Of a stretch of DNA of 64,000 nt, positions 7,933-60,238 are shown piece after piece. Numbering within the stretch: the first letter of the stretch is position 1; each line of letters starts with the position of its first letter. The DNA comes from Alphaproteobacteria bacterium (GTDB taxonomy: Bacteria > Pseudomonadota > Alphaproteobacteria > CACIAM-22H2). The DNA is taken from contig JAFKFM010000010.1 in assembly GCA_017308135.1 (NCBI GenBank), positions 46,296-110,295 on the forward strand. The letters are read 5' to 3'. The translations under genes and the position numbers were made by a program. A model generated the notes under the pieces. It saw only the letters and a program-made list of their open reading frames with translations, was not told the origin of the DNA and searched no databases.

Positions 7933-8117
7933 TTTCCACAAAAGGCCTCAAAATGCTTCGATATTGTGGAAAACAATATTGAAACAATTGAATTCTATAC
8001 GGTCTGGGGGACTGGGCTCGCGGCGATGCCGCTCGGGATTCGAATCCCGCCGCTCCGACCACTCGCAAGAGACGAAGAAGCCCGCCCTGGGAAATCAGCG
8101 GCGGGCTTCGGCGTTTT
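7933..8117 (+). repeat. Dispersed element copy 1 (variant): conserved 5' box + AT-rich spacer + tRNA-like 3' module (7999..8061, ends ACCA) + terminator hairpin (8077..8118)
   Basis: Shares TTTTCCACAAAAGGCCTCAAAATGC, ACGGTCTGGGGGACTGGG, TTCGAATCCCGCCGCTCCGACCA and GAAGCCCGCC..GGCGGGCTTCGGCGTTTTT with the three other copies. Differs by a ~22-nt replacement (CTCGCGGCGATGCCGCTCGGGA) inside the tRNA-like module. Confidence 0.8.
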
Positions 8118-8432
8118 TCGACGGCCGTGGACGCGTGGTGCACGCTCATTCCAAAAGATAGCTTCAGATGGAAAAGGTGGCTTGCGAATATTATGAACAA
8201 AGGCGCATTCGCTGTTCGACGGCATATGCAACAGCGTCTCGCATGACGCCCCAGACCAAGCGGAGCCTCCCTCACGAGCCGCGTCTGAAGCGTTAAGCAA
8301 GCCAAGCGCGTTATGGGCACCGCAACTCGTCGCGATCGCGGCGCCGACAGCGACGATCGCAAAGATAAAATCAGCTTGTCGATGGCGTAAAACTATCATT
8401 CTTTCCGAAACTCAACAGCCTCATCGGTTCGC

Positions 8433-9113
8433 ATGAACGATTCAACGTCCCCCACGGCAGACGTAAGATCTGCCGGTCGTTACATTCTCATTGGTATTCT
8501 CACCGTTGCGCCACTGACGGTTACCTGGATTATTCTCGATTTTCTTTTTGCGCAGTTATCGAGGGTCGGGAAGCCTTGGGTCGCGACGATTGCGCGCGGA
8601 ATCGCTCCGGAAAGTCCAGGCACAGCCCAGTTATTGCAGAATGAGACGTTCCAATCGTTTGTTGCCGTTGGCGTTGTTTTATTGGGATTGTGGCTGCTCG
8701 GCTGGGTGGCGAGCCGCGTCATCGGGCGGCGCTTAATCGGAATTTTCGAACGCCTGATTGGGCTCATTCCCTTTGTAGATAAGGTATATCACGCGACCCA
8801 ACGCTTCTTGACCATCGCCGGTGGTACGCAAGACGGCGCGCGCCGTGTGGTGTTAATCGAATTTCCGTCGCGCGATATGAAAGTAGTCGGGTTTGTGACG
8901 AAGACGCTTGTCGATGCGAATTCGGGTACCCAATTGGCAGCTGTTTATGTGCCGACGGCGCCGAATCCGACTTCGGGTTATGTCGAGATTGTGCCAATCG
9001 AGAATCTGGTATTCATCGACTGGACATTCGACGAGGCGATGGCCTTCATCGTGACTGGTGGCTCCAGTGCGCCGGATCGGATCGCATACAGCCACCCACC
9101 GCCACGCGGCTAA
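8433..9113 (+). CDS. DUF502-family membrane protein
   Basis: 226 aa, two N-terminal TM helices, and the VPTAPNPTSGYVEIVP motif typical of DUF502. Confidence 0.75.
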   Translation: MNDSTSPTADVRSAGRYILIGILTVAPLTVTWIILDFLFAQLSRVGKPWVATIARGIAPESPGTAQLLQNETFQSFVAVGVVLLGLWLLGWVASRVIGRRLIGIFERLIGLIPFVDKVYHATQRFLTIAGGTQDGARRVVLIEFPSRDMKVVGFVTKTLVDANSGTQLAAVYVPTAPNPTSGYVEIVPIENLVFIDWTFDEAMAFIVTGGSSAPDRIAYSHPPPRG

Positions 9114-9342
9114 CCCACCATGCATTTTTAAAGTGCGGCAGCAACGCCATCGGGCGTTCGCGCCGGAAACGGCAAGATCGACTTGGGGTTTTCGCCGAAA
9201 TTTTTCGTACCTACGATGAACGCAGACGCATCCGATTGACCCATGACGAGTCGCGCAGCGCGAGGCGCGATATAGTCGATGCCGGCGACGTTCTCGGAAA
9301 CCGTGGCCAAGATGCGACTTTGGAATTGCGAGGTTCGACGCT

Positions 9343-10971
9343 ATGCCGCCGACCGACACGATCGCGTCCGCGCTGGGCGGAATTGGGCTGTTTCTGCTCG
9401 GCATGTCGATGATGACCGAGGGACTCAAGGCGGCCGCAGGCGGTGCGCTACGCGACTGGCTGGCGCGAGCCACGCGGACGGTGCCGCATAGTTTGGCGGC
9501 CGGCTTCCTGATTACGGCTTTGGTTCAATCGTCCAGCGCGGTGACGGTCGCCGCGATCGGGCTCGTCAACGCCGGACTGCTCGGCTTGACACAGGCGGTA
9601 TGGCTGGTGTTCGGCACCAACGTGGGCACGACGATGACCGGCTGGATCGTCGCGTCGATCGGAGTAAAGGTCGATGTCGCGGCGCTTGCTTTGCCAATGA
9701 TCGGTTTGGGCATGGCCTTGCGCATTGCGGCGGGCGGCCGGGAAAGGATCACCGGCGGCGGCGGCGCGATCACGGGATTCGGGCTGTTCTTCCTTGGCAT
9801 ATCCTTTCTTCAGAACGGCTTCGCGCACGCCGCCGACACGCTGGTGCTGGGCTTGCCGGCGGAGGGCGGAATCACCAAAACGGCGATGCTCGTCGCCGTC
9901 GGCACCGCCCTGACTGTGCTGATGCAATCGTCCAGTGCCGCGCTCGCGGTGACGCTCGCCGCCAGCGCTGGCGGCGGTCTCGGTATCGAAGCGCTCGCGG
10001 CGGTCGTCGTGGGCACAAATATCGGCACGACGTCGACCGCATTCTTCGCGGGTCTTGGCGCGACATCGGCTGCTCGGCGCGTGGCGGCGGCGCATATCAT
10101 CTTCAATGTTGCGACGGCGGCGGTCTCGCTAACGATCCTGCCGCAACTCGTCGCGGTCTCGGCATTTCTCGTCGATGTCGTAACTTCGGCGAACGCGCCG
10201 GCAGCGACGCTGGCCGTGTTTCATACCGTCTTCAACGTTCTCGGCGTTGTCTTGATGCTGCCCGTAGGCGGCCTGCTCGTCCGCTGGCTCGCGCGGATGT
10301 TCGCGAGCGGCGATGAGGCCGTTGCACGGCCTAAATTCTTGGACGCCGGCCTCGAGGCCGTGCCGGCGCTCGCGGCGGGCGGTTTGATCCGCGAAAGCGA
10401 ACGGCATTTGGCCGCTGCGGCTGCAGCCGTTCTTGCCACCGGCGATGCGCATCGACGCGAAAGCGAAGGCGGCAAGTTGAAGGGGCCCGCGGCGGTTCGA
10501 AGCCTTGGCGTCGCAATCCGGACGTTTCTGATTCGCCTCGGCAAGTCGCCGCTTCCCGCCGATATGGCCCGCGCGCTGCCGCATGTTTTACGCGCCAGTC
10601 AGCACACCGACGCGCTCGCCGGGATCGCGTTGCCAGCGATGCCGCCGTCGATCGCCGCCGGTTCTCCGCTCGCCGGCGGCGTCGAGCTTATCGAGAAGGC
10701 GACGCGCGGCTGCCTCGCTTTGACCGTCGAGAGCGGCGGCGATACGGCGCGGATACGGGCCGCGACCGGCGAGGTGGAGGGCGCTTACGAAGCGTTGAAA
10801 ACGACGCTTCTGTCGGCGACGGCCGCCGGCGTTATGGATGTCCAAGAATTCGACCAGATGCTTGATCGCGCGCGGTCGTACCGGGAGGCGGCGCGGTTGG
10901 CGTGGAAGGCGCACAACCGGCTGGCCGCCGCTCGCGCGGCGATGGGCGTAGCCGGGGACAGGCGCGTGTAA
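9343..10971 (+). CDS. Na/Pi-cotransporter family protein (NptA/YjbB-like) with C-terminal PhoU-like region
   Basis: Duplicated QSSSA motifs (LVQSSSAVTVA, LMQSSSAALAV), polytopic, 542 aa. Confidence 0.85.
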   Translation: MPPTDTIASALGGIGLFLLGMSMMTEGLKAAAGGALRDWLARATRTVPHSLAAGFLITALVQSSSAVTVAAIGLVNAGLLGLTQAVWLVFGTNVGTTMTGWIVASIGVKVDVAALALPMIGLGMALRIAAGGRERITGGGGAITGFGLFFLGISFLQNGFAHAADTLVLGLPAEGGITKTAMLVAVGTALTVLMQSSSAALAVTLAASAGGGLGIEALAAVVVGTNIGTTSTAFFAGLGATSAARRVAAAHIIFNVATAAVSLTILPQLVAVSAFLVDVVTSANAPAATLAVFHTVFNVLGVVLMLPVGGLLVRWLARMFASGDEAVARPKFLDAGLEAVPALAAGGLIRESERHLAAAAAAVLATGDAHRRESEGGKLKGPAAVRSLGVAIRTFLIRLGKSPLPADMARALPHVLRASQHTDALAGIALPAMPPSIAAGSPLAGGVELIEKATRGCLALTVESGGDTARIRAATGEVEGAYEALKTTLLSATAAGVMDVQEFDQMLDRARSYREAARLAWKAHNRLAAARAAMGVAGDRRV

Positions 10972-11008
10972 TTCCGTGCGCTTCCGGCGCCCATCGCCCG
11001 GCGACCGT

Positions 11009-11869
11009 TCAAGCGCGCACGACGATCGTATCCTGCGCGAGAAGCGCGGTCAGCGTTTCCGCGACGCTTCCGAACACGAGGCTATCGATACCGATCCGCC
11101 CATGCGTTCCAAGAACGACGAGATCCGGCGACATGCGTGGAAGCTCTTCAAGCAGAATCCCGGCTGCTCGACCTTGCGCGACACGGATGGAACGGAGCCC
11201 GTGCCCATAGGCCGCGGCCCGTCCGGTATCGGCAACGCATTCGGCGGTTAATTGCTCGAGCCGACGCCGGAGCGCCGCCTCATCGGCAGCATCTCCGCCT
11301 TCGTCGATATGGACGACTTCGATCGCCGCGTCGGGAAATGCCTTCAGCGCGAAGGTCAGCGCCTTGCGCGACGACCCTTCCAAATCGACGGCGGCCACGA
11401 TCTTCGCGTAAGGGCGCCGCGCGCGCGCCTTGACGACGAGAATCGGGCAATTCGCTCTCCGGATAATGTTATCGATGACGGTACCGCGAATCATACCCAT
11501 CAAAGTCATGTCGCGCGGGCTGCCGACGACGACAATCTCGGCGCCCATCGTGCCTGCGGCACGGACGACTGTGTCGTCGATCGCGCCCTGAAGAACTTCG
11601 CCCGTCACGACGATCCGTCCGGCCGGAGTATTTTCTATGATTTCGGTGGTCAGCCGCGTCATGGCCTCCCAGAGCCGGCCGATCGCGACCCCATCGGCGG
11701 GCGCCGAGGGTTCGGCAACATGTACGAAATGGACGGCGGCGCCTTGCGCGGCAAGCATTAGCGCTCGATCCGCAGCCCGATCCATGCAAACGCCGAGATC
11801 GACGGCGACGAGAATACGCTGGAGCCTGTACGGCTCTGCGCCGCGCTCGCCGATTTCCGTGTTCTTCAT
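11009..11869 (-). CDS. Universal stress protein, tandem UspA domains
   Basis: Two Usp-like halves, each with the VVLGTHGR / VVVGSPRD ATP-binding-type motif; 286 aa. Confidence 0.8.
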   Translation of the reverse strand: MKNTEIGERGAEPYRLQRILVAVDLGVCMDRAADRALMLAAQGAAVHFVHVAEPSAPADGVAIGRLWEAMTRLTTEIIENTPAGRIVVTGEVLQGAIDDTVVRAAGTMGAEIVVVGSPRDMTLMGMIRGTVIDNIIRRANCPILVVKARARRPYAKIVAAVDLEGSSRKALTFALKAFPDAAIEVVHIDEGGDAADEAALRRRLEQLTAECVADTGRAAAYGHGLRSIRVAQGRAAGILLEELPRMSPDLVVLGTHGRIGIDSLVFGSVAETLTALLAQDTIVVRA

Positions 11870-12738
11870 TCTTCAGTCTCCCGTTCCGGCGGCGGCAATA
11901 CGAGGACGTCGATCGACGCCGAAGCGAGTACCCGTTCCGCGACGCTTCCCAGTACGGCCCGCGCCAATGTCGTGCGGCTTTGCGTGGATACGACAAGGAG
12001 ATCGGCTCGACGCGCGACGGCTTCCTCTAGAATTTCCACGGCGGGCGCCGCCGCTTCGTGGCGGACGAGGCACTCGGCGCTGGCGGCGCCGATCTCAGTC
12101 GCGAAAACAACTAGATCGCGCCGTGCGTCGGCGCGCAGCCCATCAAGATAGTCTTCGCGGTCGCGTTCCGCGACGAACGACGACATCGCCAGCCGCAAGG
12201 CCGGTGCATCGAACACGTTCAGTATGGATCGCCGGCCACTGAAATAGTAATCCAGCCGGACGAGCCGTTTGAGTGCTTTGCGCGAGCCCTCGGAGAGATC
12301 GGTCGTCAGCATGACATGGCCGTAATCCCCGAAGGGCGGGCCGTTCGCCATCAGGACCGGGCACGTGGCCGCGCGTATCGTGCGTTCGGCCGTCGTGCCG
12401 GTGAACGCATCGCGTAGAATTTGACGCCGATGCGGACCGATGACGAGCATGTCGGGGGCCGGATCGTCCACCGACTTCAAAATCCCCGCGAACGGATCGG
12501 CGAGTTCGATGCGAATCGTCGAGGCGACGCCATCGACGCTTTTCAACGACCCGGCGAGTTCCGTCAGCAGCAGCCACGCCTCGTGCTTCTCTTGCTCGAC
12601 AATGCGGCGGGGACGATCGTCGTCGATCACGTGGACTAGATCGATCACGGCGCCGCTACGCCGCGAGAGAAGTACGGCGCGCCGCAACGCTCGATCGGAG
12701 CGTTCCGAGAAATCCGTCGCTAGTGCCAGTCGCTTCAT
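11866..12738 (-). CDS. Universal stress protein, tandem UspA domains
   Basis: 290 aa tandem Usp. Its stop overlaps the start of the downstream usp by 4 nt. Confidence 0.8.
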   Translation of the reverse strand: MKRLALATDFSERSDRALRRAVLLSRRSGAVIDLVHVIDDDRPRRIVEQEKHEAWLLLTELAGSLKSVDGVASTIRIELADPFAGILKSVDDPAPDMLVIGPHRRQILRDAFTGTTAERTIRAATCPVLMANGPPFGDYGHVMLTTDLSEGSRKALKRLVRLDYYFSGRRSILNVFDAPALRLAMSSFVAERDREDYLDGLRADARRDLVVFATEIGAASAECLVRHEAAAPAVEILEEAVARRADLLVVSTQSRTTLARAVLGSVAERVLASASIDVLVLPPPERETEE

Positions 12739-12796
12739 GCGTTGATCACCCGCTTCAGTGAAGTGCGTATTCGATCACAAGTTACAAGTGCCGTAC

Positions 12797-12810
12797 TTGA
12801 TGCAGGTCAA
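12797..12810. promoter_or_regulatory. FNR/FixK-type box TTGATGCAGGTCAA (TTGAT-N4-GTCAA)
   Basis: 9/10 match to the TTGAT-N4-ATCAA consensus. Centred ~65 bp upstream of the usp start at 12738, in the divergent usp / CPA2 promoter region. Confidence 0.45.
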
Positions 12811-12833
12811 TGAATGCGACGCTTGTTCGTCTA

Positions 12834-12848
12834 CGTTGACGGTCAACG
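12834..12848. promoter_or_regulatory. 15-bp palindrome CGTTGAC-g-GTCAACG
   Basis: Perfect 7-bp arms seen in sequence, 24 bp downstream of the FNR-like box in the same intergenic region. Confidence 0.3.
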
Positions 12849-13063
12849 CCAATTCGCAGTGAGGTGGCGGTTAAAGAGTTTCCCGTCTTCGTGATGTAGA
12901 AAAATATCGATATGACAAGCTCAAATCGGTCATTTGACATCCGTATCGAAAGCCCTTGCAGCCAGAAAACAGGGCATTTTCGCCAACTAAACCTCGGGAC
13001 GGCGTTTGCGGCGCAACTACGCAAACACCATCCGAGATATGGGTATGTCTCGGGTTTTCACGG

Positions 13064-14773
13064 ATGATAAATTTCGCAGAAGTTGCATTGTTGCTGGCGG
13101 TGGCGGCTGCGGTCGGTTTGGCCGGCAGCATTTTGCGCCAGCCGTTGATCGTCGGATTCATCGCAGCCGGGCTGCTTGCCGGACCGTCGGCATTGAATAT
13201 CGTCGCCGCAACGGGCTATATCGAGTTGATGTCCGAGCTTGGCATCGCCGTCCTGTTGTTTTTGGTGGGCATCAAGCTCGATGTGGCGCTGATCCGCTCT
13301 TTAGGTTACGTCGCCGTCGTCACGGGGCTCGGCCAAGTCGCTTTCACGTCTTTCTTCGGCTATCTCATCGGTCTTGGCCTCGGCCTTGATCATGTGACGA
13401 GCTTGTATGTCGCGGTCGCGCTGACATTCTCGTCAACGATCATCGTCGTCAAACTCCTCTCCGACAAGCGCGAGATCGATTCCCTTCACGGGCAAATCGC
13501 GCTGGGCTTCTTGATTGTTCAGGATCTGTGCGTAGTAGCGGCGATGGTCGCGTTGTCAGCGATCGGGATCGGCGCCAACGCCGAAGATGTTGCGGAGCCG
13601 GGATCTTGGTTCGCCATCTTGGCGGCGGGGACGGGCCTCGCCGCCGCTGTCTTCCTGTTCGTAAAGTTCTTCGCGACGCCGCTGACAATGTGGCTGGCGC
13701 GTTCGCCCGAGTTGTTGACGATCAGCGCAATAGCTATCGCGGCGATTTTTGCGGCGGCGGGCGAAGCGGCAATGCTCGGCAAGGAAATCGGGGGGCTGTT
13801 GGCGGGAATCGCTTTGGCCTCGACGCCGTACCGCGAAACAATCTCCGCGCGGTTGGCGCCGCTGCGCGACTTCCTTCTGTTGTTCTTTTTCGTCGCGTTG
13901 GGCGCGAAGCTCGATTTGTCGACACTTGGCGCGCACGCAACCGCCGCAGCGGTGTTTTCGGCTTTCGTACTGGTCGGCAATCCACTGATCGTCCTCGCGA
14001 TACTCGGGGCTATGGGTTACGCGAAGCGGACGGGCTTTTTGGCCGGTCTGACGGTCGCGCAGATCAGCGAATTTTCGCTGATATTCACGGCGATGGGAGT
14101 ATCGCTCGGGCATGTGGGCCCGGACGCTCTGGGGCTGGTTACGATGGTGGGGCTCGTTACGATCGCGGCATCGACCTATATGATCGTTCACTCCCATCGA
14201 CTCTACGCGCTGTTCGAACCTGCGCTCGGCGTGTTCGAGCGCGGCGGCGCGCATCGCGAAGAGTCGTTCGCTGGGCGCCGCATGTCGGGCGAATTCACGG
14301 TAGTCGTTTTCGGGCTCGGACGCTTCGGTACGGCAATCGGGACACGGCTTCGGCAACGCGGAATTCGCGTGCTCGGGATCGACTTCAATCCGCAAGCAGT
14401 AAAGCGTTGGCGCGAGCTCGGGTTGGACGCCGAATTCGGCGATGCCTCGGACCCCGAATTCGTCTCCGAGATTCCGTTCGGCCGGGCCCAATGGATCTTG
14501 TCCACCGTGCCGATCCACCCGGCTGGCCTCAGCCATGAAGACGCGCGGCGCACATTGATTCAGTTGACGCGGTCGGCGGGGTATCGCGGTCGGATCGCGG
14601 CGGCGTCGCATGGAGACTACGATCGCCGCCTGTTGCAGGAAGCGGGGGTCGATCTGGTGCTGGAGCCTTTCCAAGACGCCGCCGATCGCGCGGTCGAGTT
14701 GCTGTGCGGCGCAGAACCCGTCGAACGTATCGATGTTTCGCCGATCGCCGCCGAAGGCGGCAAGGCCGGGTAA
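13064..14773 (+). CDS. Cation:proton antiporter, CPA2 family (KefB/KefC-like) with C-terminal RCK/TrkA-N domain
   Basis: N-terminal Na_H exchanger-type TM core, then the VVVFGLGRFGTAIGTRL Rossmann (RCK) motif. Start taken at MINFAEVALL. Confidence 0.85.
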   Translation: MINFAEVALLLAVAAAVGLAGSILRQPLIVGFIAAGLLAGPSALNIVAATGYIELMSELGIAVLLFLVGIKLDVALIRSLGYVAVVTGLGQVAFTSFFGYLIGLGLGLDHVTSLYVAVALTFSSTIIVVKLLSDKREIDSLHGQIALGFLIVQDLCVVAAMVALSAIGIGANAEDVAEPGSWFAILAAGTGLAAAVFLFVKFFATPLTMWLARSPELLTISAIAIAAIFAAAGEAAMLGKEIGGLLAGIALASTPYRETISARLAPLRDFLLLFFFVALGAKLDLSTLGAHATAAAVFSAFVLVGNPLIVLAILGAMGYAKRTGFLAGLTVAQISEFSLIFTAMGVSLGHVGPDALGLVTMVGLVTIAASTYMIVHSHRLYALFEPALGVFERGGAHREESFAGRRMSGEFTVVVFGLGRFGTAIGTRLRQRGIRVLGIDFNPQAVKRWRELGLDAEFGDASDPEFVSEIPFGRAQWILSTVPIHPAGLSHEDARRTLIQLTRSAGYRGRIAAASHGDYDRRLLQEAGVDLVLEPFQDAADRAVELLCGAEPVERIDVSPIAAEGGKAG

Positions 14774-14807
14774 CGATGAAGAATTCCCAGAGTGGAGGCG
14801 CGCTGAT

Positions 14808-17432: not shown

Positions 17433-17565
17433 TTGGCCGGAAGTGGCAGACGGGCTGGTTTTCCGGCGTGGTGGTGTGGTTTCCGCGACAATTCATCGCT
17501 CATGTTGGACTTGCTGTCGCTAGCGCAGTCGCCAAATTTAGAACGAACGATTCGGGGAGGATAGA

Positions 17566-49433: not shown

Positions 49434-49448
49434 TATTGTAATGAGGCC

Positions 49449-50867: not shown

Positions 50868-50886
50868 CGGGCCGAGGCGCCCCGAC

Positions 50887-51696: not shown

Positions 51697-53421
51697 TCAG
51701 ATGCCATCCGAAAGGATTTGATCGGCGATCTTCTCGCCGATCATAATCGTCGACACGTTCGTGTTGGCGCGCGGCACGGTCGGCATGATGGAGGCGTCGG
51801 CGACGCGCAAGTTCGCGATTCCGCGCACGCGGCCGGCGGGATCGACGACCGCCAGGCGGTCGTCGGCGGCACCCATGCGGCACGTACCGCAGGCGTGCCA
51901 GTTGCCGAGCACCGTTCGCGCGATCCAATCGTCGAGCATCGCGTCGTCCGTCGCCATCGCGTGGATGTCGTCGCCTTGCGGAAACGCGAGGCGCATGAGC
52001 GAACGGCGCGCGATCGCGCTGGCGTCGAGCGCGCCGGCGCCAAGCGTCAGGATCGCGTCGCCGATCGGTCCGGCGGATCGCAATGTGCGCAGGAAATCGG
52101 TATAGGCGCCGGCGAAGACCTGATGGCTGACGCGCCGGACGTGATCGCTCGTCAGCATCCGGTGGACGAAGCGCACGCCGTCGCGCATACGCTGCCGATC
52201 GCGCCCGTCGCCGAGCAGATTGAACGCGACGAACGGTTCGTCTTGCGCATCGGCGCTGCGCAGTTTCACGTAGCCTCGCGAGAAGGCCTTGTCGGGCCCG
52301 ACGCGTACGACCGCGAACTGATCGCCGATGGCGCTGGGATCGAAGCGGTTCGCAACCGAGAGCTTCATGTCTTGTGCCGGGCAGTCGGCAAGATGCGAAC
52401 TGAAGCGCGCATAGATCAAAAACGGATTTCGATGCCGCGGATTCATCCGGCCTTCGGGCTTCAAGTGAATGCCGATCCCGACAAGCGGATGATCCTGCAG
52501 ATTGCCGCCGACACCCGGCAGATCGGCCACGGGCGCGATGCCAAGCGCTTTGAGTTCCTCGGCCGAGCCAACGCCGGAGCGCAGCAGCAGGGCGGGGGAA
52601 TGGATGGCGCCGGCGGAAACGATGATCTCCCGCGCTTCGATCCGGCGCGGCGCGCCAGCGATTTGCGCGTGAACGGCGACGGCGCGGTGCCCGTCGAATT
52701 CGATGCGTGCCACGGCCGCATCGGCGACGACGGTCAAATTGGGCCGCAAGCGCGCGGCGTTGTCGAGATACGCGACCGCCGTCGTCACGCGCCGCCCATA
52801 GATGTTGTTGCGCGGGAACGGAAAGCAACCGTCGCCGGGCTCCGCATTGGCGTCGTCGTGATAGGCGACGCCGGCATCGGCTAGCGCGTCGCGGAATGCC
52901 AAGGCGAAGCCGCCCCAATCCTTTGGAAAGGTTCTGCGGATCGGAAACGGCCCTTCGCTGCCATGCAGCGGGCCGGTGAAATCCATGTCGCGTTCGAGCT
53001 TGCGGAAATAGGGAAGGCATTCGCGCCAGTTCCAACCATCGGCCCCCATCTGCGCCCATTCGTCGTAATCCGCAGGAATGCCACGCAACGCGATCTGACC
53101 GTTGACGCTCGATCCGCCGCCCATGACGCGCGCTTGCTCGTAACGCATCGGCTGCATCTCGGCGGCGATCTCGGCCATGGAGCGATTGCCGATCGGGCCT
53201 CGGAATACGGTGAGATCGGTCCAATACCGGCTCGGATCGAAGTAATCGGGGAGGTACTGCGCGCTGGAGATTGTTTCCGGCACCGATTCGGGCGGCGTAT
53301 CGGGGCCGGCCTCGAGCAGGCAGACGCGATATCGCCCGTTTGCGGAAAGTCGATTGGCGACGACGCATCCGGCCGATCCGCCGCCAACGACCAGAAAATC
53401 GTATCGATCAGAGTTGTTCAC
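51697..53421 (-). CDS. GMC-family oxidoreductase (choline-dehydrogenase-like)
   Basis: YDFLVVGGGSAGCVVANRLS N-terminus, GMC signature regions, 574 aa. Confidence 0.9.
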   Translation of the reverse strand: MNNSDRYDFLVVGGGSAGCVVANRLSANGRYRVCLLEAGPDTPPESVPETISSAQYLPDYFDPSRYWTDLTVFRGPIGNRSMAEIAAEMQPMRYEQARVMGGGSSVNGQIALRGIPADYDEWAQMGADGWNWRECLPYFRKLERDMDFTGPLHGSEGPFPIRRTFPKDWGGFALAFRDALADAGVAYHDDANAEPGDGCFPFPRNNIYGRRVTTAVAYLDNAARLRPNLTVVADAAVARIEFDGHRAVAVHAQIAGAPRRIEAREIIVSAGAIHSPALLLRSGVGSAEELKALGIAPVADLPGVGGNLQDHPLVGIGIHLKPEGRMNPRHRNPFLIYARFSSHLADCPAQDMKLSVANRFDPSAIGDQFAVVRVGPDKAFSRGYVKLRSADAQDEPFVAFNLLGDGRDRQRMRDGVRFVHRMLTSDHVRRVSHQVFAGAYTDFLRTLRSAGPIGDAILTLGAGALDASAIARRSLMRLAFPQGDDIHAMATDDAMLDDWIARTVLGNWHACGTCRMGAADDRLAVVDPAGRVRGIANLRVADASIMPTVPRANTNVSTIMIGEKIADQILSDGI

Positions 53422-53477
53422 CGGCCTATCCCGCTAACGCATTGATTTTCCGTCGAACGATTTATATCTCCAAATAA

Positions 53478-53495
53478 AAAATTACAACGTTGACA
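53478..53495. promoter_or_regulatory. 18-bp motif AAAATTACAACGTTGACA (contains 8-bp palindrome CAACGTTG), copy A
   Basis: An identical 18-mer recurs at 58124..58141. Both lie in divergent promoter gaps of the same locus, and one is directly upstream of the GntR gene. Confidence 0.45.
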
Positions 53496-53551
53496 TTTTG
53501 TGCGGGCGCGATAATTTAAGCCTCGGTTCCAAGCCATCGCGGAGCGCGCGC

Positions 53552-54319
53552 ATGACGAACACGCTGGACGATCTTCCGCCGGACGATGCGGCGCTTTCCG
53601 GCCGATTGGCGAGCGCCGTCTACGAGCAGATCGAGCGTCTGATCCGCCGCGGCGAGTTTCCCAAAGACGTGAAGCTGCCGCCAGAATCGGAACTCGCGCG
53701 CCGCTTCGGCGTTTCGCGGCCCGTGGTGCGCGAAGCGTTGGCGCGTTTGCGCGACGAAGGAATTATCCGCTCGCAGAAGGGGGCGGGGTCCTTTGTCATC
53801 CGGGGCATGACGCCGAGCGCCACGGCGCTGCCCACGATCCGCACCGTCGCGGATCTGCTGCGCTATTACGAATATCGCATCGATGTGGAGGCGGCGACCG
53901 CGGGTTTGGCGGCGGAGCGACGTGGCGCGGACGACGTGGCGGAGATGGCGAAGGTTCTGGCGGGCGCGGAGGAGATGCTCCGCCAAGGCCAGTATCTGCT
54001 GCTGTCGGACGCGAACTTCGCGTTCCATCGCTCTGTCGCGCAGCTGACGCGCAATCCGTTCTATGTCCGCACGCTGGAGATCATGCCGAATTTCATCGGC
54101 CGGAATCCCTTCGATCTCGTGACGTCGGACCGGAGCAATAACGAAGCCCATCTTTGGCGTATCCATCGCGAGCATGTCGCGATCTTCACCGCGATCGAGG
54201 CGGGTGATCCCGCGCGCGCGCGGGTCGAAATGCAGCGGCACATTCTTGCCGCGCGCGACGAGGTTCTAAATCGTCAGGCGCTCATGCAGAAGCTGCAGAT
54301 CGATCTGCCGAAGATGTGA
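53552..54319 (+). CDS. GntR-family transcriptional regulator (FCD subfamily)
   Basis: Start MTNTLDDLPP. wHTH (LPPESELARRFGVSRPVVREALARL) plus FCD domain. Confidence 0.85.
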   Translation: MTNTLDDLPPDDAALSGRLASAVYEQIERLIRRGEFPKDVKLPPESELARRFGVSRPVVREALARLRDEGIIRSQKGAGSFVIRGMTPSATALPTIRTVADLLRYYEYRIDVEAATAGLAAERRGADDVAEMAKVLAGAEEMLRQGQYLLLSDANFAFHRSVAQLTRNPFYVRTLEIMPNFIGRNPFDLVTSDRSNNEAHLWRIHREHVAIFTAIEAGDPARARVEMQRHILAARDEVLNRQALMQKLQIDLPKM

Positions 54320-54377
54320 CGGCGCCGGCCACGTCGGGCCGATCGACGAAAACAAAACGCAAAAACGGGAGGATAGA

Positions 54378-55640
54378 ATGCTGACGAGGCGTAACGCTCT
54401 TATCGGGGCGGCGGGGGCTGCGAGCATCGCAAGTTTTCGCGTCAAAGCGACGGAAAAAATCTCGATCGTATCGCACGCCGTCCATCGAAACGCTGCGACG
54501 ACCGGGCTTGGCGGCGACGTGACCGCGCCGTGGTGCGCCGCGAACAACGCGACGCTGGAATGGCTGACATTCGGCGTCGAAGCGACCAACGAACGCGCGT
54601 TGCGCGAGGCGAGTCTCGGCGAGAGCAGCATCAGCCTTGCCTTCGTGCTCAACGGTCTCATCTCGCCGCAATCCGCGCGGTTGTTCGAGGATCTGGGCGA
54701 ATGGCAGGCGCGTGATCCGATCGCCGCATTCGACGAGATTCCCAAAGCGTTGCTCGCGACCCATCTCTATGACGGCGTGTTGCGCGCAATGCCGTTCCGG
54801 CACGCGACGCACGGGCTGCATTACAACGCCGATATCTTCGCCGAACGCGGAATTGCCGGGCCGCCCAAGACGATAGAGGAAGCGATCTCGAGCGCCGAAA
54901 AGCTGAGCTTCGAGCGCGGCGATGGCACGCGGGTCAACGGCCTTGCCCTCATCATGGAGGATATCGGCTGTCTGATGGATTGGATTCGCGGCTTCGGCGG
55001 TGACTTCATCACCGCGGACATGAAGGTCGTGATCGACCAGCCCGCCGCGGTGCGCGCCGTGACGTTGCTGCGCGATTTCATGCGCAAGAACGTGCTGCCG
55101 CGCAACACGATGAACTTCAAGAACGAGGACGTTATCAGCGCCATGCAGCAGGGGCGAGCCGCGATGACGAACGGGCCGTTCGGGCGTTTTCAGACCTTCA
55201 ACGATCCGAAGGCGAGTAAGTATCCGGGCCGTATTCTGCCCGTATCATTGCCGAAGGGCTTCGACGGCAATCCGATGCCGGCGAAAACGTCGATGTGGGC
55301 GATGGCGATCCCGCGCAACGCCAAGAACAAGGCGCTCGCCTGGAGCTTGCTCAAGCATCTCAGCGCGCCGGAAAGCACGATCCTCGCGACGTTGAACGGC
55401 AACGGTCCGGTCCGGCCGTCGGCCTATGACGACGCGCGCGTACAGAAGCTGCTGCCCTACGCGTCGGCCGAACGCGAAGCGCTGGCGTCGGCACGCTTGA
55501 TCACGCCGAGCTTCCCCAACGCGCAACGCGCGATGGACGCGTTGATGGAGGAAGTCGGCCTTGCTCTGCTCGGCCGCAAGGAGCCTCAAGCGGCATTGAC
55601 CGACACGAAGAACCGCGTCGTTCCGCTGCTGGCGGGATGA
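54378..55640 (+). CDS. Sugar ABC substrate-binding protein, family 1
   Basis: 420 aa with an N-terminal signal/Tat-like segment (MLTRRNALIGAAGAASIASF). Confidence 0.8.
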   Translation: MLTRRNALIGAAGAASIASFRVKATEKISIVSHAVHRNAATTGLGGDVTAPWCAANNATLEWLTFGVEATNERALREASLGESSISLAFVLNGLISPQSARLFEDLGEWQARDPIAAFDEIPKALLATHLYDGVLRAMPFRHATHGLHYNADIFAERGIAGPPKTIEEAISSAEKLSFERGDGTRVNGLALIMEDIGCLMDWIRGFGGDFITADMKVVIDQPAAVRAVTLLRDFMRKNVLPRNTMNFKNEDVISAMQQGRAAMTNGPFGRFQTFNDPKASKYPGRILPVSLPKGFDGNPMPAKTSMWAMAIPRNAKNKALAWSLLKHLSAPESTILATLNGNGPVRPSAYDDARVQKLLPYASAEREALASARLITPSFPNAQRAMDALMEEVGLALLGRKEPQAALTDTKNRVVPLLAG

Positions 55641-55645
55641 CGCGT

Positions 55646-55680
55646 AAAGCGGCGGGCGCCGTGTGCGTCCGCCGCCTTTT
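55646..55680. terminator. Bidirectional rho-independent terminator AAAGCGGCGGG-loop-CCGCCGCTTTTCG
   Basis: 10-bp GC stem flanked by an A-run and a T-run, between convergent genes ending at 55640 (+) and 55685 (-). Confidence 0.55.
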
Positions 55681-55684
55681 CGCC

Positions 55685-56611
55685 TTAAGTGAGGTTCGTC
55701 AATTTCGCGGCGATGCTCGCGAAACAGGCGGCGGTCAACGCCTCGAATCCTTCAATCGATGCGCCGCCGATATGGGGCGTGGCCAGTACGCCCGGTTGAT
55801 GGGCGATCGCCGCTTCGGGTAGCGGTTCCACCGTGAAGTTGTCGAAACTCGCAGCCGCAAGACGACCGTCGCGTACCGCGTCGCGCGCGGCACGCTCATC
55901 CACCACATCCGCGCGCGCGATCGACACGAGGACGGCGCCGCGTTTCATGCGGGCGATCTGTGCCGCATCGACGGCACCGCGCGTCCTGGCATTGGACGGG
56001 AGCGACACGCAAACGATATCCGCGCTTGCCATGACATCGTCGATCGACAGAGGGCCGCGTATCGCGTCGGAAACGCCGTCGGGTCTGCGCAGATCGTGGA
56101 AGGTGACTCGGACGTCGAACGGGGCCAGCAAGTTCGTGAGGTCGCGGCCGATTGCACCGAACCCGAGCAGCCCGATGGTCTTGCCCGTCAATCGGCGATG
56201 CGGCAATCCCGGACGCGCCGTCAACCAGGTGCCGCGTGACCAGGCGACGGCGATATCCGGCAGATGGCGCAGCGCCGAAAGTATGGCAAGTAAAAGGAAT
56301 TCGGAGACGCTACGCGTATTGGCGCCGGGCAACTCCGCGGTCGCGACGCCGCGCCGCTCGACGGCGACAACATCGATATTGTCGCGCCCCGTTCCCCAAC
56401 GTTGGATCAGGCGCAGGCGAGGGGCCGCGTCGAGCAGCGCCTCGGGCACCGGCTGCGTGCCGACGACGAGTGCTTCGAGCGCGCCAAGACGTTCGGGCGT
56501 CTTAAAATCCGGATCCAAGAATTCGATTTCGAGATCGGACGGGCAGGCGGCGGCAATATGCCGCCGCCCTTCCGCCGGCAGATCGAGGGCGAACCCGATC
56601 CTGTGCTTCAC
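55685..56611 (-). CDS. D-isomer-specific 2-hydroxyacid dehydrogenase family protein
   Basis: GLLGFGAIGRDL NAD-binding motif and catalytic R/E/H context. Probable GTG start (VKHRIGFALD). Confidence 0.8.
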   Translation of the reverse strand: MKHRIGFALDLPAEGRRHIAAACPSDLEIEFLDPDFKTPERLGALEALVVGTQPVPEALLDAAPRLRLIQRWGTGRDNIDVVAVERRGVATAELPGANTRSVSEFLLLAILSALRHLPDIAVAWSRGTWLTARPGLPHRRLTGKTIGLLGFGAIGRDLTNLLAPFDVRVTFHDLRRPDGVSDAIRGPLSIDDVMASADIVCVSLPSNARTRGAVDAAQIARMKRGAVLVSIARADVVDERAARDAVRDGRLAAASFDNFTVEPLPEAAIAHQPGVLATPHIGGASIEGFEALTAACFASIAAKLTNLT

Positions 56612-56634
56612 GCGTGAAGGCTCCAGCGCGCGCG

Positions 56635-58053
56635 TCAGATCTTCGCGCCTTGCGCGGTCAACGCGGCTTGCAGATCGCCGATCGGCACTTTGCGCGCCTG
56701 AATCTTGCGGTCCGCAGCAATCGCGGCGGCGACGCCCGCCGCTTGCCCGGTGACGATGCACCCGGCCTGCTGGCGCACGGAGCCGCACGCCACGCGATCA
56801 GCGGAGACACAACGGCCGGCGACAAGGAGCCCGTCGACCGATTCCGGCACCAAGATGCGGTAGGGGATTTGGTAGAGACGCCCGCCCCGGATCGCCGACA
56901 TGCGGGTCGTGTTGCTGCCGTCGATGCTATGTACGTCGACGGTGGCGCCGCAATAGCCGATGCTATCGGCGAAGCTGCGCGCGTCCAGCACGTCCTCGCC
57001 CGTTAGCATGTATTCGCCGACGATGCGCCGCGTTTCGCGCACGCCGACATTATCGGCGATCTGCAGCACGAAGGAGTTTTCGTAGCCGGGCACGTATTTC
57101 TTGTAGAACTCACCGATCTTCAGCGTGAAGTCGCGCATCGATCCGATCGCTTCGCTCAGCGTTTTGTTGTCGGTCGCGTCAACCTTGTAGGCCATGTCGA
57201 CGTTATGCATGGTCGTGTCGCTGACGACTCGGCCATTGCGGAAGATCGGGCGCAGGATATTGTTATGCGCACGGGGATTGAGCGTGGTTGATCCGAAGGC
57301 GGTCGGATAGTCGCCCGCCTGCGCCGCGGCTTCGCGCAAGCGCGGAAAGCCCGGAATCGTCAGCGGTTTGCCTTCGGCGAACAGCATTTTCAGTTTGCGC
57401 ATATAGCCTTCGGAGAATTCCTCTCGGCCGCTGCAGGCGTAGTCGACGGTTTTGGCAAGGTCCACGCCGCCCATCAGGAAGTAGAGCGTGATCGGCTGCA
57501 CGTAGGTCGGGTCGCCGTTCTCGCCTTGCTCGTAGCGTGCACCCGCCAGCCAAGCGACATGACCGTCGCCGGTCGCGTCGATGACGACGTCGGCCGCGAT
57601 CTCGTTGCCGTAATTCGCCTTGATGCCGGTCACGCGATTGCCGTCGCGCATGATGGCCGTCACCTTTGTGTGGTACTCGATCGACACGCCCGCCTCGCGG
57701 CACATCTTGTCGATGACGACCTTCATGATCTCCGGGTCGAACGCGACGCGGATCGTGGCTTTACCTTTTTCGCCATAGGCGCCGCCGGCGGCGACGAGAC
57801 GATCAATCATCTCCTGCGCGATGCCTTGCACGACCTGATCGCCGGAGTAGGAAGTCTCCATCTCGACCAGGGTCTCCTGATCGCGCCAGGGCTGATGGCG
57901 CAGCGAAACGATCCCGGGAACGAGTCCGCCCGTCATGGTGCCACCCAGATAGCTCGATTGTTCGAGCAAGGTCGCATGCGCACCCGCGCGTGCGGCCGCG
58001 ATCGCGGCGGCAAATCCGCTGGTTCCCCCGCCGACCACCACAACTTCAGACAT
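56635..58053 (-). CDS. FAD-dependent oxidoreductase (FAD_oxidored family), paralogue of 49449..50867
   Basis: Start MSEVVVVGGGTSGFAAAIAAARAGA (cat at 58051-58053). The 537-aa track ORF includes a 65-codon upstream read-through. Confidence 0.8.
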   Translation of the reverse strand: MSEVVVVGGGTSGFAAAIAAARAGAHATLLEQSSYLGGTMTGGLVPGIVSLRHQPWRDQETLVEMETSYSGDQVVQGIAQEMIDRLVAAGGAYGEKGKATIRVAFDPEIMKVVIDKMCREAGVSIEYHTKVTAIMRDGNRVTGIKANYGNEIAADVVIDATGDGHVAWLAGARYEQGENGDPTYVQPITLYFLMGGVDLAKTVDYACSGREEFSEGYMRKLKMLFAEGKPLTIPGFPRLREAAAQAGDYPTAFGSTTLNPRAHNNILRPIFRNGRVVSDTTMHNVDMAYKVDATDNKTLSEAIGSMRDFTLKIGEFYKKYVPGYENSFVLQIADNVGVRETRRIVGEYMLTGEDVLDARSFADSIGYCGATVDVHSIDGSNTTRMSAIRGGRLYQIPYRILVPESVDGLLVAGRCVSADRVACGSVRQQAGCIVTGQAAGVAAAIAADRKIQARKVPIGDLQAALTAQGAKI

Positions 58054-58123
58054 CGTCTCGATCTCCCATGAAAGCAAATGGCCGGTCGAATGCCGGCCGC
58101 ATGAACTTACAAGGCTATAATTC

Positions 58124-58141
58124 AAAATTACAACGTTGACA
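58124..58141. promoter_or_regulatory. 18-bp motif AAAATTACAACGTTGACA, copy B
   Basis: Identical to 53478..53495. Lies in the divergent gap between the FAD-oxidoreductase (-) and ABC permease (+) genes. Confidence 0.45.
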
Positions 58142-58217
58142 ACATAGATTCGAAGATTTACACAAGCGCATCTGCCGCGCACGCAGAGGGGAGCGACGTG
58201 AGACGAACAAATCAAAG

Positions 58218-59153
58218 ATGCCGTTTTCCGCCAAGCGTGTCGTTTCAATGATCGCCGCGACGGATCGAAAGGCGAGTTATCGCTCGGATAATCGGCACGG
58301 CGCCTATGTGCTGTTGCTGTTGCCCGCCGTGCTGCTGTTGCTCGGCTTTCTTGCCGTGCCGGCAGTCTATATTTTTTGGCTGAGTTTCCAGAAATCGACC
58401 TTCGGCGTCGATCCGGAATTCGTGGGCTTGGCGAATTATTGGGGACTGATCGCGGATCGCGCGTTCTGGCGCGCGTCGTGGAACACGATCGTCGTCGTTA
58501 ATGCCATCGTCTATGCCGAGCTTGCGCTGGGGCTGGGCGTCGCTGTGCTCGTGCGCGGTATCCGCAGCGGACGCAAGATCGTGATCGCCGCGATCCTGTT
58601 GCCTTACATCATCACCGAGAGCAGCGGGATCGTGATGTGGCGATTCATGATGGAGCCGGAGTTCGGCTTGCTCACACGGCTTATCGATCGCTCCGGATTG
58701 CCGCCGCTGCCCTGGGATTTCGAGCCGTGGGCCGCGCTCACATTGTCGGGCACCATTGCGATCTGGCACCACATGCCGTTCACGTTTCTGATTCTCTATG
58801 CGGCGCTGCTGGCTGTGCCGAAAGATACGCTGGAGGCCGCGTCGATCGACGGTGCCGGGCGCTGGCAGAGCTTCTGGCGCGTCGAGGTGCCGATCATCAT
58901 GCCGGCGATCCTCGTCGCAATCCTGTTTCGGTACATATTCGCCATCCGCTTGTTCGGCGAGGTTTGGCTGCTGACGCGCGGCGGTCCGGCGCGATTGACC
59001 GAAGTGCTCGCGATCTATCTGTATCGCGAGACGTTCCAGTATCGGAATTTCGGCTCCGCATCGGCCGCCGGCGTATGCATGTTGCTGTTGTCGCTGGCGG
59101 TCGCCACCCCCTATCTGATCCGCATGGCGCGCGAGGTGCGGCGCGATGCATAA
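58218..59153 (+). CDS. Sugar ABC transporter permease (CUT1, MalF-like)
   Basis: 311 aa polytopic, EAA region ASIDGAGRWQSFWRVEVPI. Confidence 0.85.
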   Translation: MPFSAKRVVSMIAATDRKASYRSDNRHGAYVLLLLPAVLLLLGFLAVPAVYIFWLSFQKSTFGVDPEFVGLANYWGLIADRAFWRASWNTIVVVNAIVYAELALGLGVAVLVRGIRSGRKIVIAAILLPYIITESSGIVMWRFMMEPEFGLLTRLIDRSGLPPLPWDFEPWAALTLSGTIAIWHHMPFTFLILYAALLAVPKDTLEAASIDGAGRWQSFWRVEVPIIMPAILVAILFRYIFAIRLFGEVWLLTRGGPARLTEVLAIYLYRETFQYRNFGSASAAGVCMLLLSLAVATPYLIRMAREVRRDA

Positions 59154-59979
59154 GCACAGTTGTATTTCGGCGTTGGCGCGTTTTGTGGCGCTGGTTGCCG
59201 TGCTCGCATGGAGCGTCGGGCCAATCGCCGTCGTGGCGCTGTCGTCGTTCAAGGAACCGAAGGATATCTTCGAGATTCCCTTCCGGCTGTTCTTCGTACC
59301 GACCTTCGACAATTACCGGATGCTCGCTCGATTCAATCCGGAGTTCTTCACCGGATTGGTGAACAGCCTTATCGTCACTGTGTTCGCCGTGCTGGCGACG
59401 TTGCTCGCATCGTTTGGCGCGGGCTACGTTTTCGCGCGGGCGAAGGCGGCGGGCTACAAAGCCTCGGCTTTATTCATGATTGTCGTGCGCATGCTGCCGC
59501 CGATCGTCGTCACCGTGCCGCTTTTCCCGGTCTTCAACCGTCTAGCGCTCAACGATACGCATCTGGTTCTGGTGCTTCTCTACGCGGCGTTTTATGTCAG
59601 CCTCGGTGCCTGGATGATGCGCTCGTTCGTCGCGCAGATCCCCATCGAGCTCGAGGAGGCGGCGGCGATCGACGGCGCAACATTGTGGCAGACGCTGCGC
59701 ATCGTGATCCTGCCGCTGTGCGCCCAAGGCCTGGTGGCGCTGACGCTTTTCGTCGTCGTCTTCGCGTGGAACGAATATGTCTTCGCGATGATCTTCACGA
59801 CGACAGAGGCACGCACGGCACCGGTTGTGATCGGTGAGATGCTGAGCACAGCCGAAGGTGTCAAGTGGGGCGCCGTCTTCGCGGCGGCGACGATCCAGCT
59901 GGTGCCCGTCGTCGTCGTCGTCCTGGCACTTCAGCGCTTCCTGATCGCCGGCCTTACTGCCGGGAGCGTCAAAAGCTGA
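59146..59979 (+). CDS. Sugar ABC transporter permease (CUT1, MalG-like)
   Basis: 277 aa, EAAAIDGATLWQTLRIVILPL. Confidence 0.85.
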   Translation: MHKHSCISALARFVALVAVLAWSVGPIAVVALSSFKEPKDIFEIPFRLFFVPTFDNYRMLARFNPEFFTGLVNSLIVTVFAVLATLLASFGAGYVFARAKAAGYKASALFMIVVRMLPPIVVTVPLFPVFNRLALNDTHLVLVLLYAAFYVSLGAWMMRSFVAQIPIELEEAAAIDGATLWQTLRIVILPLCAQGLVALTLFVVVFAWNEYVFAMIFTTTEARTAPVVIGEMLSTAEGVKWGAVFAAATIQLVPVVVVVLALQRFLIAGLTAGSVKS

Positions 59980-60067
59980 AAGTATCGACCAGTCCAAAAA
60001 CTGATCCGCTACTTGCGGAGTATTCCAAAATGTCGGCATGCGATACTCGACGTTTACTATGTCGCTA

Positions 60068-60238
60068 TTTTCCACAAAAGGCCTCAAAATGCCCCGACAA
60101 TTCGGAAATTAATATTGAAATAACTAAGTTTTATACGGTCTGGGGGACTGGGGGTCGTGGGTTCGAATCCCGCCGCTCCGACCATCACACGAGAGACGAA
60201 GAAGCCCGCCCTGGGAAACCAGCGGCGGGCTTCGGCGT
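60068..60238 (+). repeat. Dispersed element copy 4: 5' box, spacer (with CCGAcaatTCGG palindrome instead of TTCGATATTGTGGAA), tRNA-like module 60135..60184, terminator hairpin
   Basis: Module and hairpin identical to copies 2 and 3. Confidence 0.85.

Follow-up and report, generated by a model that had tools for sequence, protein, structure and literature searches.

Chromosomal integrons hold co-oriented cassette arrays with attC sites, in an orientation fixed relative to replication, and their cassettes are excised as circles and reinserted. Streptococcal cis-mobilizable elements (CIMEs) are integrase-less tandem modules bounded by attachment (att) sites and can be mobilized only by the recombinase of another element. 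Repetitive extragenic palindromic (REP) repeats, bacterial interspersed mosaic elements (BIMEs) and miniature inverted-repeat transposable elements (MITEs) are short sequences with a GC hairpin that lie 3′ of genes, are enriched between convergent genes and serve as substrates for rearrangement. Two further systems use tRNA genes: the Sinorhizobium phage phiLM21 has been reported to integrate into tRNA-Pro(GGG) through a 64-bp attP (PMC12429752), and the Tycheposon islands of Prochlorococcus arise by repeated integration at a tRNA gene, leaving partial tRNAs between cargo modules, many of them without a live integrase (bioRxiv 10.1101/2020.12.28.424599). Here we describe a repeated, tRNA-Pro(GGG)-related element in a 64,000-nt stretch of DNA (the window) from an Alphaproteobacteria bacterium (GenBank assembly GCA_017308135.1, contig JAFKFM010000010.1, positions 46,296 to 110,295 of the forward strand). 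The repeats mark the junctions of operon-sized modules and probably mediate the shuffling of these modules. The cassette is polarized with respect to replication, and the operons that it delimits are ordinary metabolic ones, variable among strains 88–98% identical. Tandem islands at tRNA genes are known; here the junction itself has turned into a conserved and self-contained cassette, which is kept with no integrase present.

Anatomy, distribution and polarity of the element

Repeat search and alignment identified four direct copies in the window, all on the + strand, at 7932–8116, 18357–18529, 42193–42367 and 60068–60240 (copies 1–4), and an nhmmer profile built from 34 family members returned the same four and no further ones. 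In the repeat search these copies make up families D3 and D5. The start-to-start distances of 10425, 23836 and 17875 nt exactly match the spacings of 10.4, 23.8 and 17.9 kb given in a first-pass annotation of the same sequence. Pairwise identity among the copies is 77–91% over 175–190 nt, with sharp ends; the element as a whole measures ~180–300 bp, the upper end including a left extension. In + strand order it comprises an AT-rich arm, positions 27–76 of tRNA-Pro(GGG) (anticodon arm to CCA), a variable spacer and a GC hairpin. The 67-nt arm starts with TTTTCCACA, with an inverted TGTGGAAAA ~24 nt beyond, and is followed by the invariant ACGGTCTGGGGGACTGGG, then GGTCGTGGGTTCGAATCCCGCCGCTCCGACCA, then the spacer of 8–14 nt. 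The right end consists of the hairpin GAAGCCCGCCCTGG-GAAA-CCAGCGGCGGGCTTC and GGCGTTT.

The central 50 nt fold as the anticodon arm of tRNA-Pro(GGG) (stem CGGU/ACUG, loop CUGGGGG), followed by the variable loop and the T arm; the 3′ acceptor strand is CGCUCCG, followed by A73 and CCA. From the variable loop to CCA, 34 nt are identical to the tRNA-Pro(GGG) gene of S. meliloti, the tRNA identity being confirmed by ARAGORN. The element has no tRNA 5′ half, and ARAGORN called 0 tRNA or tmRNA genes in the window. The first-pass annotation had likened the 3′ module to the T-arm–acceptor–CCA end of a tRNA or tmRNA gene. The tRNA end stands, but the extent was drawn too narrowly, the similarity covering positions 27–76 with the whole anticodon arm. 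A tmRNA or two-piece tmRNA identity was rejected: no Rfam family reached its gathering threshold in the window, the tmRNA scores of the elements are weak (11.6–15.2 bits against a gathering score of 47), the 15.2-bit match at 42084–42309 (copy 3) depends on the T arm and acceptor, and the acceptor CGCTCCG-A-CCA is of tRNA-Pro type (C1-G72), without G3-U70.

Two forms of the element occur. In the short form (copies 2–4) the core is an exact tRNA half, whereas in the long form (copy 1 and most relatives) a palindrome of 13 nt is inserted into the variable region and the T stem is altered. In copy 1 the left AT-rich arm occupies 7932–7998, the tRNA-Pro-like segment with the 13-nt extra hairpin 7999–8061, and the spacer with the GC hairpin 8062–8116; the arm abuts the terminator hairpin of UbiX. 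Copy 2 comprises a left arm at 18357–18423, with TTTTCCACA at 18357–18365, the tRNA segment at 18424–18473, the spacer at 18474–18489 and the hairpin at 18490–18522. Copy 3 begins further upstream and spans 42084–42367, with the left extension at 42084–42192, the left arm at 42193–42259, the tRNA-like part at 42260–42309 and the spacer and hairpin at 42310–42367; an extension of this kind, ~110–130 nt long, is common to ~14 family copies. Copy 4 is divided into a left arm (60068–60134), a tRNA-like part (60135–60184) and a spacer with hairpin (60185–60240). At the outer edge of the left extension, ~190 nt left of the elements, two loci hold reversed tRNA-like 3′ ends (TGGCG..CTAG.GGATTCGAA; L032 ~2760–2800 and L056 ~3530–3570) in which no tRNA was called.

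Across the family, the tRNA-like part, CCA and hairpin are nearly invariant, and copies are mosaic, with every combination of left-arm type, form (short or long) and spacer type. Between genera (Tagaea versus the window), the elements are 78–91% identical, compared to only ~65–70% for gene DNA. The extra hairpin of the long form contains three compensatory double changes (9:9, 15:5 and 14:4), and none of 500 shuffles attains its score. This pattern shows selection for pairing or for a palindrome, which could act as RNA, as single-stranded DNA or as a symmetric protein site. In one Tagaea metagenome-assembled genome (MAG), two copies (L005 84–276 and L007 1955–2133) share both element flanks, one being of long form and the other of short form, with a few differences in arm and hairpin; either gene conversion has altered a patch of one copy or the bin contains two strains.

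A scan of one genome per species with the exact 18-mer ACGGTCTGGGGGACTGGG recovered the element only in three Tagaea MAGs (Rhodospirillales), and a metagenome scan added 20 further contigs, several of them 92–98% identical to the window. Sequencing sample SRR13325165 matches the window at 100%. Among the genomes and metagenomes scanned, the family was found only in Tagaea-like Rhodospirillales. Matches to the 18-mer outside Tagaea are mostly chance hits in unrelated sequence, and the tRNA-like ones are att-type tRNA-Pro 3′ fragments in other phyla, with 0 intact tRNA genes. The census is biased, because retrieval by the exact 18-mer favours intact cores; among the full copies that similarity alone recovered, two carry substitutions in the core.

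Copies are clustered 7–43 kb apart and share one orientation within every array. This holds for the window (4/4) and for VFQN01000087.1 (4/4; 11.8, 19.1, 62.6 and 85.5 kb), VFQU01000176.1 (3/3; 9.7, 50.7 and 71.1 kb) and VFQU01000134.1 (3/3; 39.9, 81.4 and 92.2 kb). The 5.3-Mb Tagaea chromosome OZ245798.1 has three copies at 1.5849, 1.6025 and 1.6366 Mb, all on the − strand, and two at 5.0705 and 5.0829 Mb, both on the + strand. GC skew in the flanks is positive on the element strand for 31 of 35 copies and about zero for the other four. With the transcription-linked component separated out, the replication-linked component of the skew is positive in 11/11 loci, so the tRNA-sense strand is the leading strand.

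Module differences between relatives and crossover positions

The copies lie at the borders of functional blocks, mostly between convergent operons, as the first-pass annotation had proposed and as Pfam and the gene tables of near-identical contigs bear out. The blocks are numbered modules 1 (between copies 1 and 2), 2 and 3 (between copies 2 and 3), 4 (between copies 3 and 4) and 5 (right of copy 4). In relatives 88–98% identical to the window, all of them metagenome assemblies, these modules were present, absent or permuted as units, a positive outcome of the comparison that the first-pass annotation had suggested.

One such difference was found in VFQR01000021.1 (L077), which matches window 1–8116 at 98.5% and window 42194–46368 at 87.7%, the two alignments overlapping in one 156-nt element. 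Its gene order is UbiX, one copy, mannitol dehydrogenase, and window 8117–42192 (modules 1–3 with copy 2) is absent, an indel of 34.4 kb between copies 1 and 3. The single copy, at 4003–4158, is a hybrid. Its left half is orthologous to the left arm of copy 1 (98.5% flank identity), its unusual spacer (C/T)TACTCGAGAGAG, right arm and right flank are those of copy 3, and the switch lies in the tRNA-like core. The hybrid is placed exactly as recombination between copies 1 and 3 would leave one. It also has a private 18-nt deletion in the T arm and CCAACCA in place of CCGACCA, changes that suggest either decay of the tRNA-like part after recombination or an assembly collapse.

Other relatives differ by insertion or by order. 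In VFQU01000134.1, the left flank of copy 4 is followed by a long-form copy at 39.9 kb and the right flank is preceded by a short-form copy at 81.4 kb, with 41.5 kb of extra DNA between them. Module order is element, module 2, junction, module 1, element in VFQU01000176.1 and in four independent Logan assemblies, versus element, module 1, element, module 2 in the window; the junction, 386 nt long, connects module 2, at its dpp end, with module 1, at its DUF502 end, and holds remnants of a substrate-binding protein (SBP) gene. A full element occurs at the right end of module 2 in JAESFZ010000033.1 (L052) and L067, so that both sides of this module are element-flanked. In JACVCP010000002.1 (L061), copy 2 and module 2 are present with another module on the left, and that module also ends with an element in a Tagaea locus (L007); the left neighbour of module 2 differs among the window, L061 and the VFQU contig. 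VFQQ010005270.1 (L039) is in common with the window only right of copy 4. Homology to the window ends within 1–2 nt of the outer element ends in all these relatives.

Identity to relatives also shifts across a copy. The block left of copy 1 is 98.5% identical to the VFQR contig and module 4 is 87.7% identical to it, and at copy 4 the left side is 93.7% identical to L050, with module 5 98.0% identical to L040. A candidate for a clean empty site upstream of dpp was rejected, as local alignment placed 371 nt of unrelated DNA where the element would be.

Crossover positions were mapped by comparing pairs of copies that share only one flank. L033 and L060 are ~99% identical from the left flank across the arm to the end of the 18-mer, past which they are unrelated. 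To the right of and including the T loop, copy 4 shows 100% identity to L039 (98% to L040), with different forms (short versus long) and different left arms in the L039 pair. Copy 2 has the spacer of L038, with which its left flank is in common, and the post-hairpin flank of L061, with which its right flank is in common. The switch points lie in the core, the T-loop/acceptor block and the hairpin block, the three stretches of 18–54 nt that are identical between copies, which fits recombination wherever identity allows and is a poor fit to one fixed crossover.

Origin of the cassette and mode of exchange

The tRNA part of the element has counterparts at known integration sites. Positions 6–51 of phiLM21, described in the literature as attP, hold the same tRNA-Pro segment (93.5% identity over 46 nt), adjoined by an integrase and an excisionase. 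A fragment starting with the same ACGG adjoins, in L057, an integrase 55% identical to the phiLM21 integrase. In L036 (Ga0182024_10055510, 610–4445), an intact tRNA-Pro(GGG) is followed by two tandem ACGG 3′ fragments 0.7 and 3 kb apart, the intact gene reading TCAGTC where the fragments read ACGGTC. For integrases of this anticodon-loop class of tRNA integration sites, strand exchange takes place in the anticodon stem. In these elements the tRNA homology starts in the anticodon stem, the same start point as in the window element.

phiLM21-type tRNA-Pro(GGG) att sites and the window copies are alike in their tRNA part, a 3′ segment with anticodon arm at one end and CCA at the other, and in occurring as direct copies around variable DNA, and the tRNA-Pro fragments in L011, L036 and L057 likewise have an upstream non-tRNA arm with repeated motifs. 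They differ in that copies of the window type lack an adjoining integrase or excisionase and have arms that are not homologous to those of phiLM21. Moreover, complete two-armed copies occur here at every junction including the first, the cargo consists of ordinary metabolic operons and crossovers are found at three places.

Similar fragments were noted elsewhere. In other phyla including WPS-2 (L036; also L011, L043, L046 and L053), upstream arms have direct repeats CTACAACAG, and all fragments read ACGGTC. The Methylocystis iwaonis plasmid pSS37A-Re-2 (L076 4990–5050) has a truncated tRNA-Pro(GGG) from the D arm to CCA, with no gene called and no element arms. A phage or plasmid origin of the element as such was rejected, as BLAST against phage and plasmid collections matched the tRNA part only; the one IMG/VR match is a Tagaea-like contig without an integrase.

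From these comparisons we favour, with moderate confidence, a reading in which the element would be an att-like cassette descended from the attP or att junction of a tRNA-Pro(GGG) element at which operon-sized modules now meet and are exchanged. Its parts would be an AT-rich protein-binding arm, the tRNA 3′ half from the anticodon stem and sequence downstream of CCA ending in the GC hairpin, and its original spread would have been mediated by an integrase. Recombination between two direct copies would loop out the intervening modules as a circle with one copy, and in the reverse reaction the circle could be inserted at any resident copy, so that modules would be gained, lost and reordered as units. 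The data show the anatomy, the att-type tRNA fragment, the arrays, their polarity, the unit-wise differences among relatives and one hybrid junction; of this scheme, we infer the circular intermediate and the enzyme. Because crossovers fall in three conserved blocks and no integrase is nearby, present-day exchange is probably mostly homologous (RecA-type) or carried out by a recombinase encoded elsewhere. If the comparisons hold in closed genomes, the element would provide a simple sequence marker for the flexible part of the genome and a tractable case of operon-sized module exchange without mobility genes in cis.

Several observations weigh against the att-derived reading. Regular expressions, tblastn and a three-seed hidden Markov model, applied to ~650 kb, found no integrase near (~5–10 kb) 36 of the 37 copies; a scan of the window agrees with the first-pass annotation, which had seen none. 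The exception is L023, where a Pfam Phage_integrase match (3.8e-22) belongs with a tRNA-Met fragment that lies 110 nt away from the element. This region (L023 4838–8000, ~1.637 Mb on the Tagaea chromosome OZ245798.1) lies at the upstream end of the three-copy array and comprises a tRNA-Met(CAT) 3′ fragment, a tyrosine integrase (5144–6307) and low-GC DNA; it is a separate genomic island docked beside the element. No intact tRNA-Pro was found at any readable array end, in the window or in Tagaea-type loci, and 16.6 kb left of copy 1 in L077 contain neither a tRNA nor an element. Crossovers occur beyond the anticodon loop, in the core (L033/L060, copy 1 × copy 3), from the variable region to the spacer (copy 4/L039) and in the hairpin block (copy 2/L061), and the single short strand-exchange core expected of a tyrosine integrase att site was not seen. 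Among the relatives compared, there is no case of the element alone being present or absent between unchanged flanks, which leaves the arrival of the first copy unexplained. A plain att-site model predicts neither the leading-strand polarity nor the compensatory changes in the long-form hairpin.

Joins across a repeat in metagenome assemblies can, in addition, be chimeric, and a hybrid copy with identity shifts is what a chimera would show. Against a chimera stand the short exact identity between window copies (≤54 nt), the M2–M1 junction (module 2 to module 1), which is repeat-free and seen in five assemblies, the private 18-nt deletion of the hybrid copy and the agreement of different projects on the variable neighbours.

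A bolder version of exchange by a recombinase encoded elsewhere can be described as an 'operon integron', in which modules of 7–43 kb, with one tRNA-Pro-derived site each, would be excised as circles and reinserted at any other site of a replication-oriented array, possibly by a recombinase acting on folded single strands. Action on folded single strands would account for both the leading-strand polarity and the compensated hairpin. Co-oriented module arrays, structured sites, replication orientation and hairpin pairing kept by compensatory change are all shared with integrons. The modules, however, are operon sets of 7–43 kb instead of ~1-kb promoterless genes, the site is derived from a tRNA and not from attC, and no IntI or attI platform was found in array heads read over 3–16 kb. 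We regard this version as unlikely; if it were true, Tagaea-like bacteria could trade and reorder catabolic and transport operons.

A tRNA fragment that begins at the anticodon stem, like known att sites, and direct repeats in arrays with island-like spacing would also be left behind by successive island insertions at one tRNA-Pro(GGG), with integrases lost later and the copies now inert as passive attL/attR scars. Two distal copies (L035 and L040:12129) lose similarity soon past CCA, like a P-O-B′ junction, and Tycheposon islands show the same scattered partial-tRNA pattern, with partial tRNAs separating cargo modules of nutrient-uptake and metabolic genes (bioRxiv 10.1101/2020.12.28.424599). 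Those islands adjoin an intact tRNA gene and contain fragmented integrases, neither of which is seen here, whereas the window has a conserved 180–300-bp cassette with arms and a hairpin, more than a partial tRNA. The first-pass annotation had offered a similar account, that of att-like scars from stepwise accretion at a tRNA- or tmRNA-like site. The unit-wise module differences, the hybrid copy and the attP-type tRNA part speak for its att-like character, but the copies are not well described as passive scars of stepwise integration at one tRNA. No array that was read has an intact tRNA-Pro at its proximal end, and copy 1, the leftmost and proximal one, is no B-O-P′ junction, its left arm being complete. 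A search of the five modules in the window and of related loci (~650 kb) found no integrase remnant. Unlike passive scars, both arms, the core and the hairpin are conserved across genera far above gene DNA identity; crossovers fall at at least three places; and modules are reordered, not merely stacked. Passive scars are quite unlikely. CIMEs resemble the window in having integrase-less modules in tandem between att or att-like sites, but they adjoin a live integrative and conjugative element (ICE) at a defined gene 3′ end, and no ICE, relaxase or integrase was seen here.

The element could alternatively be a selfish MITE- or REP-like repeat that inserts itself near gene ends and is tolerated chiefly between convergent genes, with occasional rearrangements arising through homology and the association with module borders a by-product. 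Its placement is strictly intergenic: the 31 placeable copies comprise 22 between convergent genes, 6 tandem co-oriented, 3 tandem anti-oriented and 0 divergent (binomial p = 1.6e-4 versus a conservative background). Sharp left and right ends would fit such a repeat, as would its multi-copy nature, with k=31 assemblies from eight sequencing runs all breaking within the element. So would the strong conserved hairpin with replication strand polarity, as in single-strand-DNA transposons. The four window copies, however, have no terminal inverted repeats and no target-site duplication, their ends (C/T)ATTTTCCAC and GGGCTTCGGCGTTT not being mutual inverts, and no transposase was seen. No element-only presence or absence was found, every polymorphism spanning kilobases of flanking genes. 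Copies are arrayed and not dispersed as REP, BIME or MITE sequences are (5 copies in 2 clusters on the 5.3-Mb chromosome), and they have a tRNA half and an AT-rich arm. On balance, a self-inserting repeat appears rather improbable.

A last alternative, of which we are decidedly doubtful, is that the copies are small-RNA genes or RNA cassettes whose arm would be a regulated promoter, with a conserved TG-N-TATA-like motif ~25 nt before ACGG, and whose tRNA-half-like transcript would end at the hairpin. The cassette would then work at the RNA level, or it would stop transcription between convergent operons or insulate them from each other. A sense strand that is always the leading strand, as for tRNA genes, would suit an RNA role, as would the near-invariant tRNA-like part, CCA and hairpin, the compensated pairing in the long form and the conserved inverted boxes TTTTCCACA and TGTGGAAAA, which resemble a regulator site. 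Between ACGG and the hairpin, the RNA has a predicted folding energy of −54.1 kcal/mol, better than shuffles (z = −2.7). On the other side, no Rfam family reaches threshold (tmRNA, noted above, is the best), no sigma-70-type promoter was called on the + strand at any copy and RNAalifold on 11 extended copies returned invariant pairs only, with an unfavourable covariation term (+2.33) and no covariation in arms or extension. The inverted boxes do not covary as a stem, and a stem between them was rejected because of mismatches in many copies without consistent compensation. The first-pass annotation had proposed that the shared GC hairpin would act as a bidirectional terminator, an idea that finds no support: the hairpin tail reads GGCGTTT on the + strand and TTCGTCTCTC on the − strand, with no adjacent T-run at any copy, and for want of such a run after the stem the terminator scan called no copy on either strand. 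An RNA role would also leave the module polymorphism unexplained.

Strand polarity, DnaA-box-like motifs, the maintained extra hairpin and the near-invariant tRNA half together suggest that the element may have a role as a site beyond marking old integrations. The DnaA-box consensus TTWTNCACA has four matches in the 64-kb window, all of them inside the four elements (0.89 expected), at 7965–7973 (−), 18357–18365, 42193–42201 and 60068–60076. In the family consensus, the second, inverted box TGTGGAAAA lies ~24 nt from the DnaA-box-like motif. GANTC (CcrM) sites are present in the T loop and frequently 15–20 nt upstream as well. With the leading-strand polarity, these motifs hint at a possible link to replication or the cell cycle. 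A sigma-54 promoter in the arm was rejected (the spacing in GG-N9-GC is too short by one nt and is not kept between copies), and inspection by eye gave no consensus match to integration host factor (IHF) or dif/Xer sites.

Gene content of the window

Copy 1 lies between tandem genes, UbiX/Flavoprotein (7249–7866, +) on the left and DUF502 (8433–9113, +) on the right; further left are UbiD and an ABC/aminotransferase block. Copies 2, 3 and 4 lie between convergent genes, as first annotated. Copy 2 is flanked by a CBS/BON gene (ends 18303, +) and DUF4387 (ends 18608, −), copy 3 by a GntR/FCD regulator (ends 41916, +) and mannitol dehydrogenase (ends 42407, −), and copy 4 by an ABC permease (ends 59979, +) and a polysaccharide deacetylase (ends 60372, −).

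By Pfam, module 1 (8433–18303) is an ion and stress block with DUF502, a Na/Pi cotransporter, two Usp genes, a Na/H exchanger with TrkA_N, a P-type ATPase and CBS/BON. Module 2 (18608–28073, −) encodes DUF4387, AtuA, a sigma54 activator, AAT and a dpp-type ABC transporter. Module 3 (30118–41916) comprises, again by Pfam, a minus-strand catabolic/ABC operon of ~11 genes (30118–40968) and the divergent GntR/FCD gene at 41185–41916; the operon encodes an amidohydrolase, SDR, an extradiol dioxygenase, two ABC ATPases, two permeases, two xylose-isomerase-like TIM proteins, an aldo/keto reductase and SBP_bac_5. Module 4 (42407–59979) is a sugar locus with mannitol dehydrogenase, PfkB, a sugar ABC transporter, LacI, FAD oxidoreductases, GntR and a second ABC transporter. 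The start of module 5 (60372–64000, −) encodes the polysaccharide deacetylase and peptide-type ABC ATPases.

Modules 2 and 3 are separated by a rearrangement scar without an element (28141–30101), which consists of 371 nt of DNA without a match elsewhere, a terminator hairpin, an SBP 3′ remnant and a truncated TctA. The remnant (28511–28764, −) is the last ~250 nt of the SBP gene and abuts TctA (28755–30101, +), which is without its first ~70 codons. At the scar position, relatives L052 and L067 have a full (fifth) element, and L052 also has an intact SBP gene. TctA paralogues beside elements in L038 and L048 were considered as a mobility gene and rejected; Pfam assigns them to a transporter, and their position is a coincidence.

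Three paralogous pairs of dipeptide-type ABC ATPase genes, at 22429–24523, ~33000–35000 and 61247–63876, explain the repeat families D1, D2, D4 and D6–D9. As the pairs are located in modules 2, 3 and 5, each of these modules has its own peptide-type transporter.

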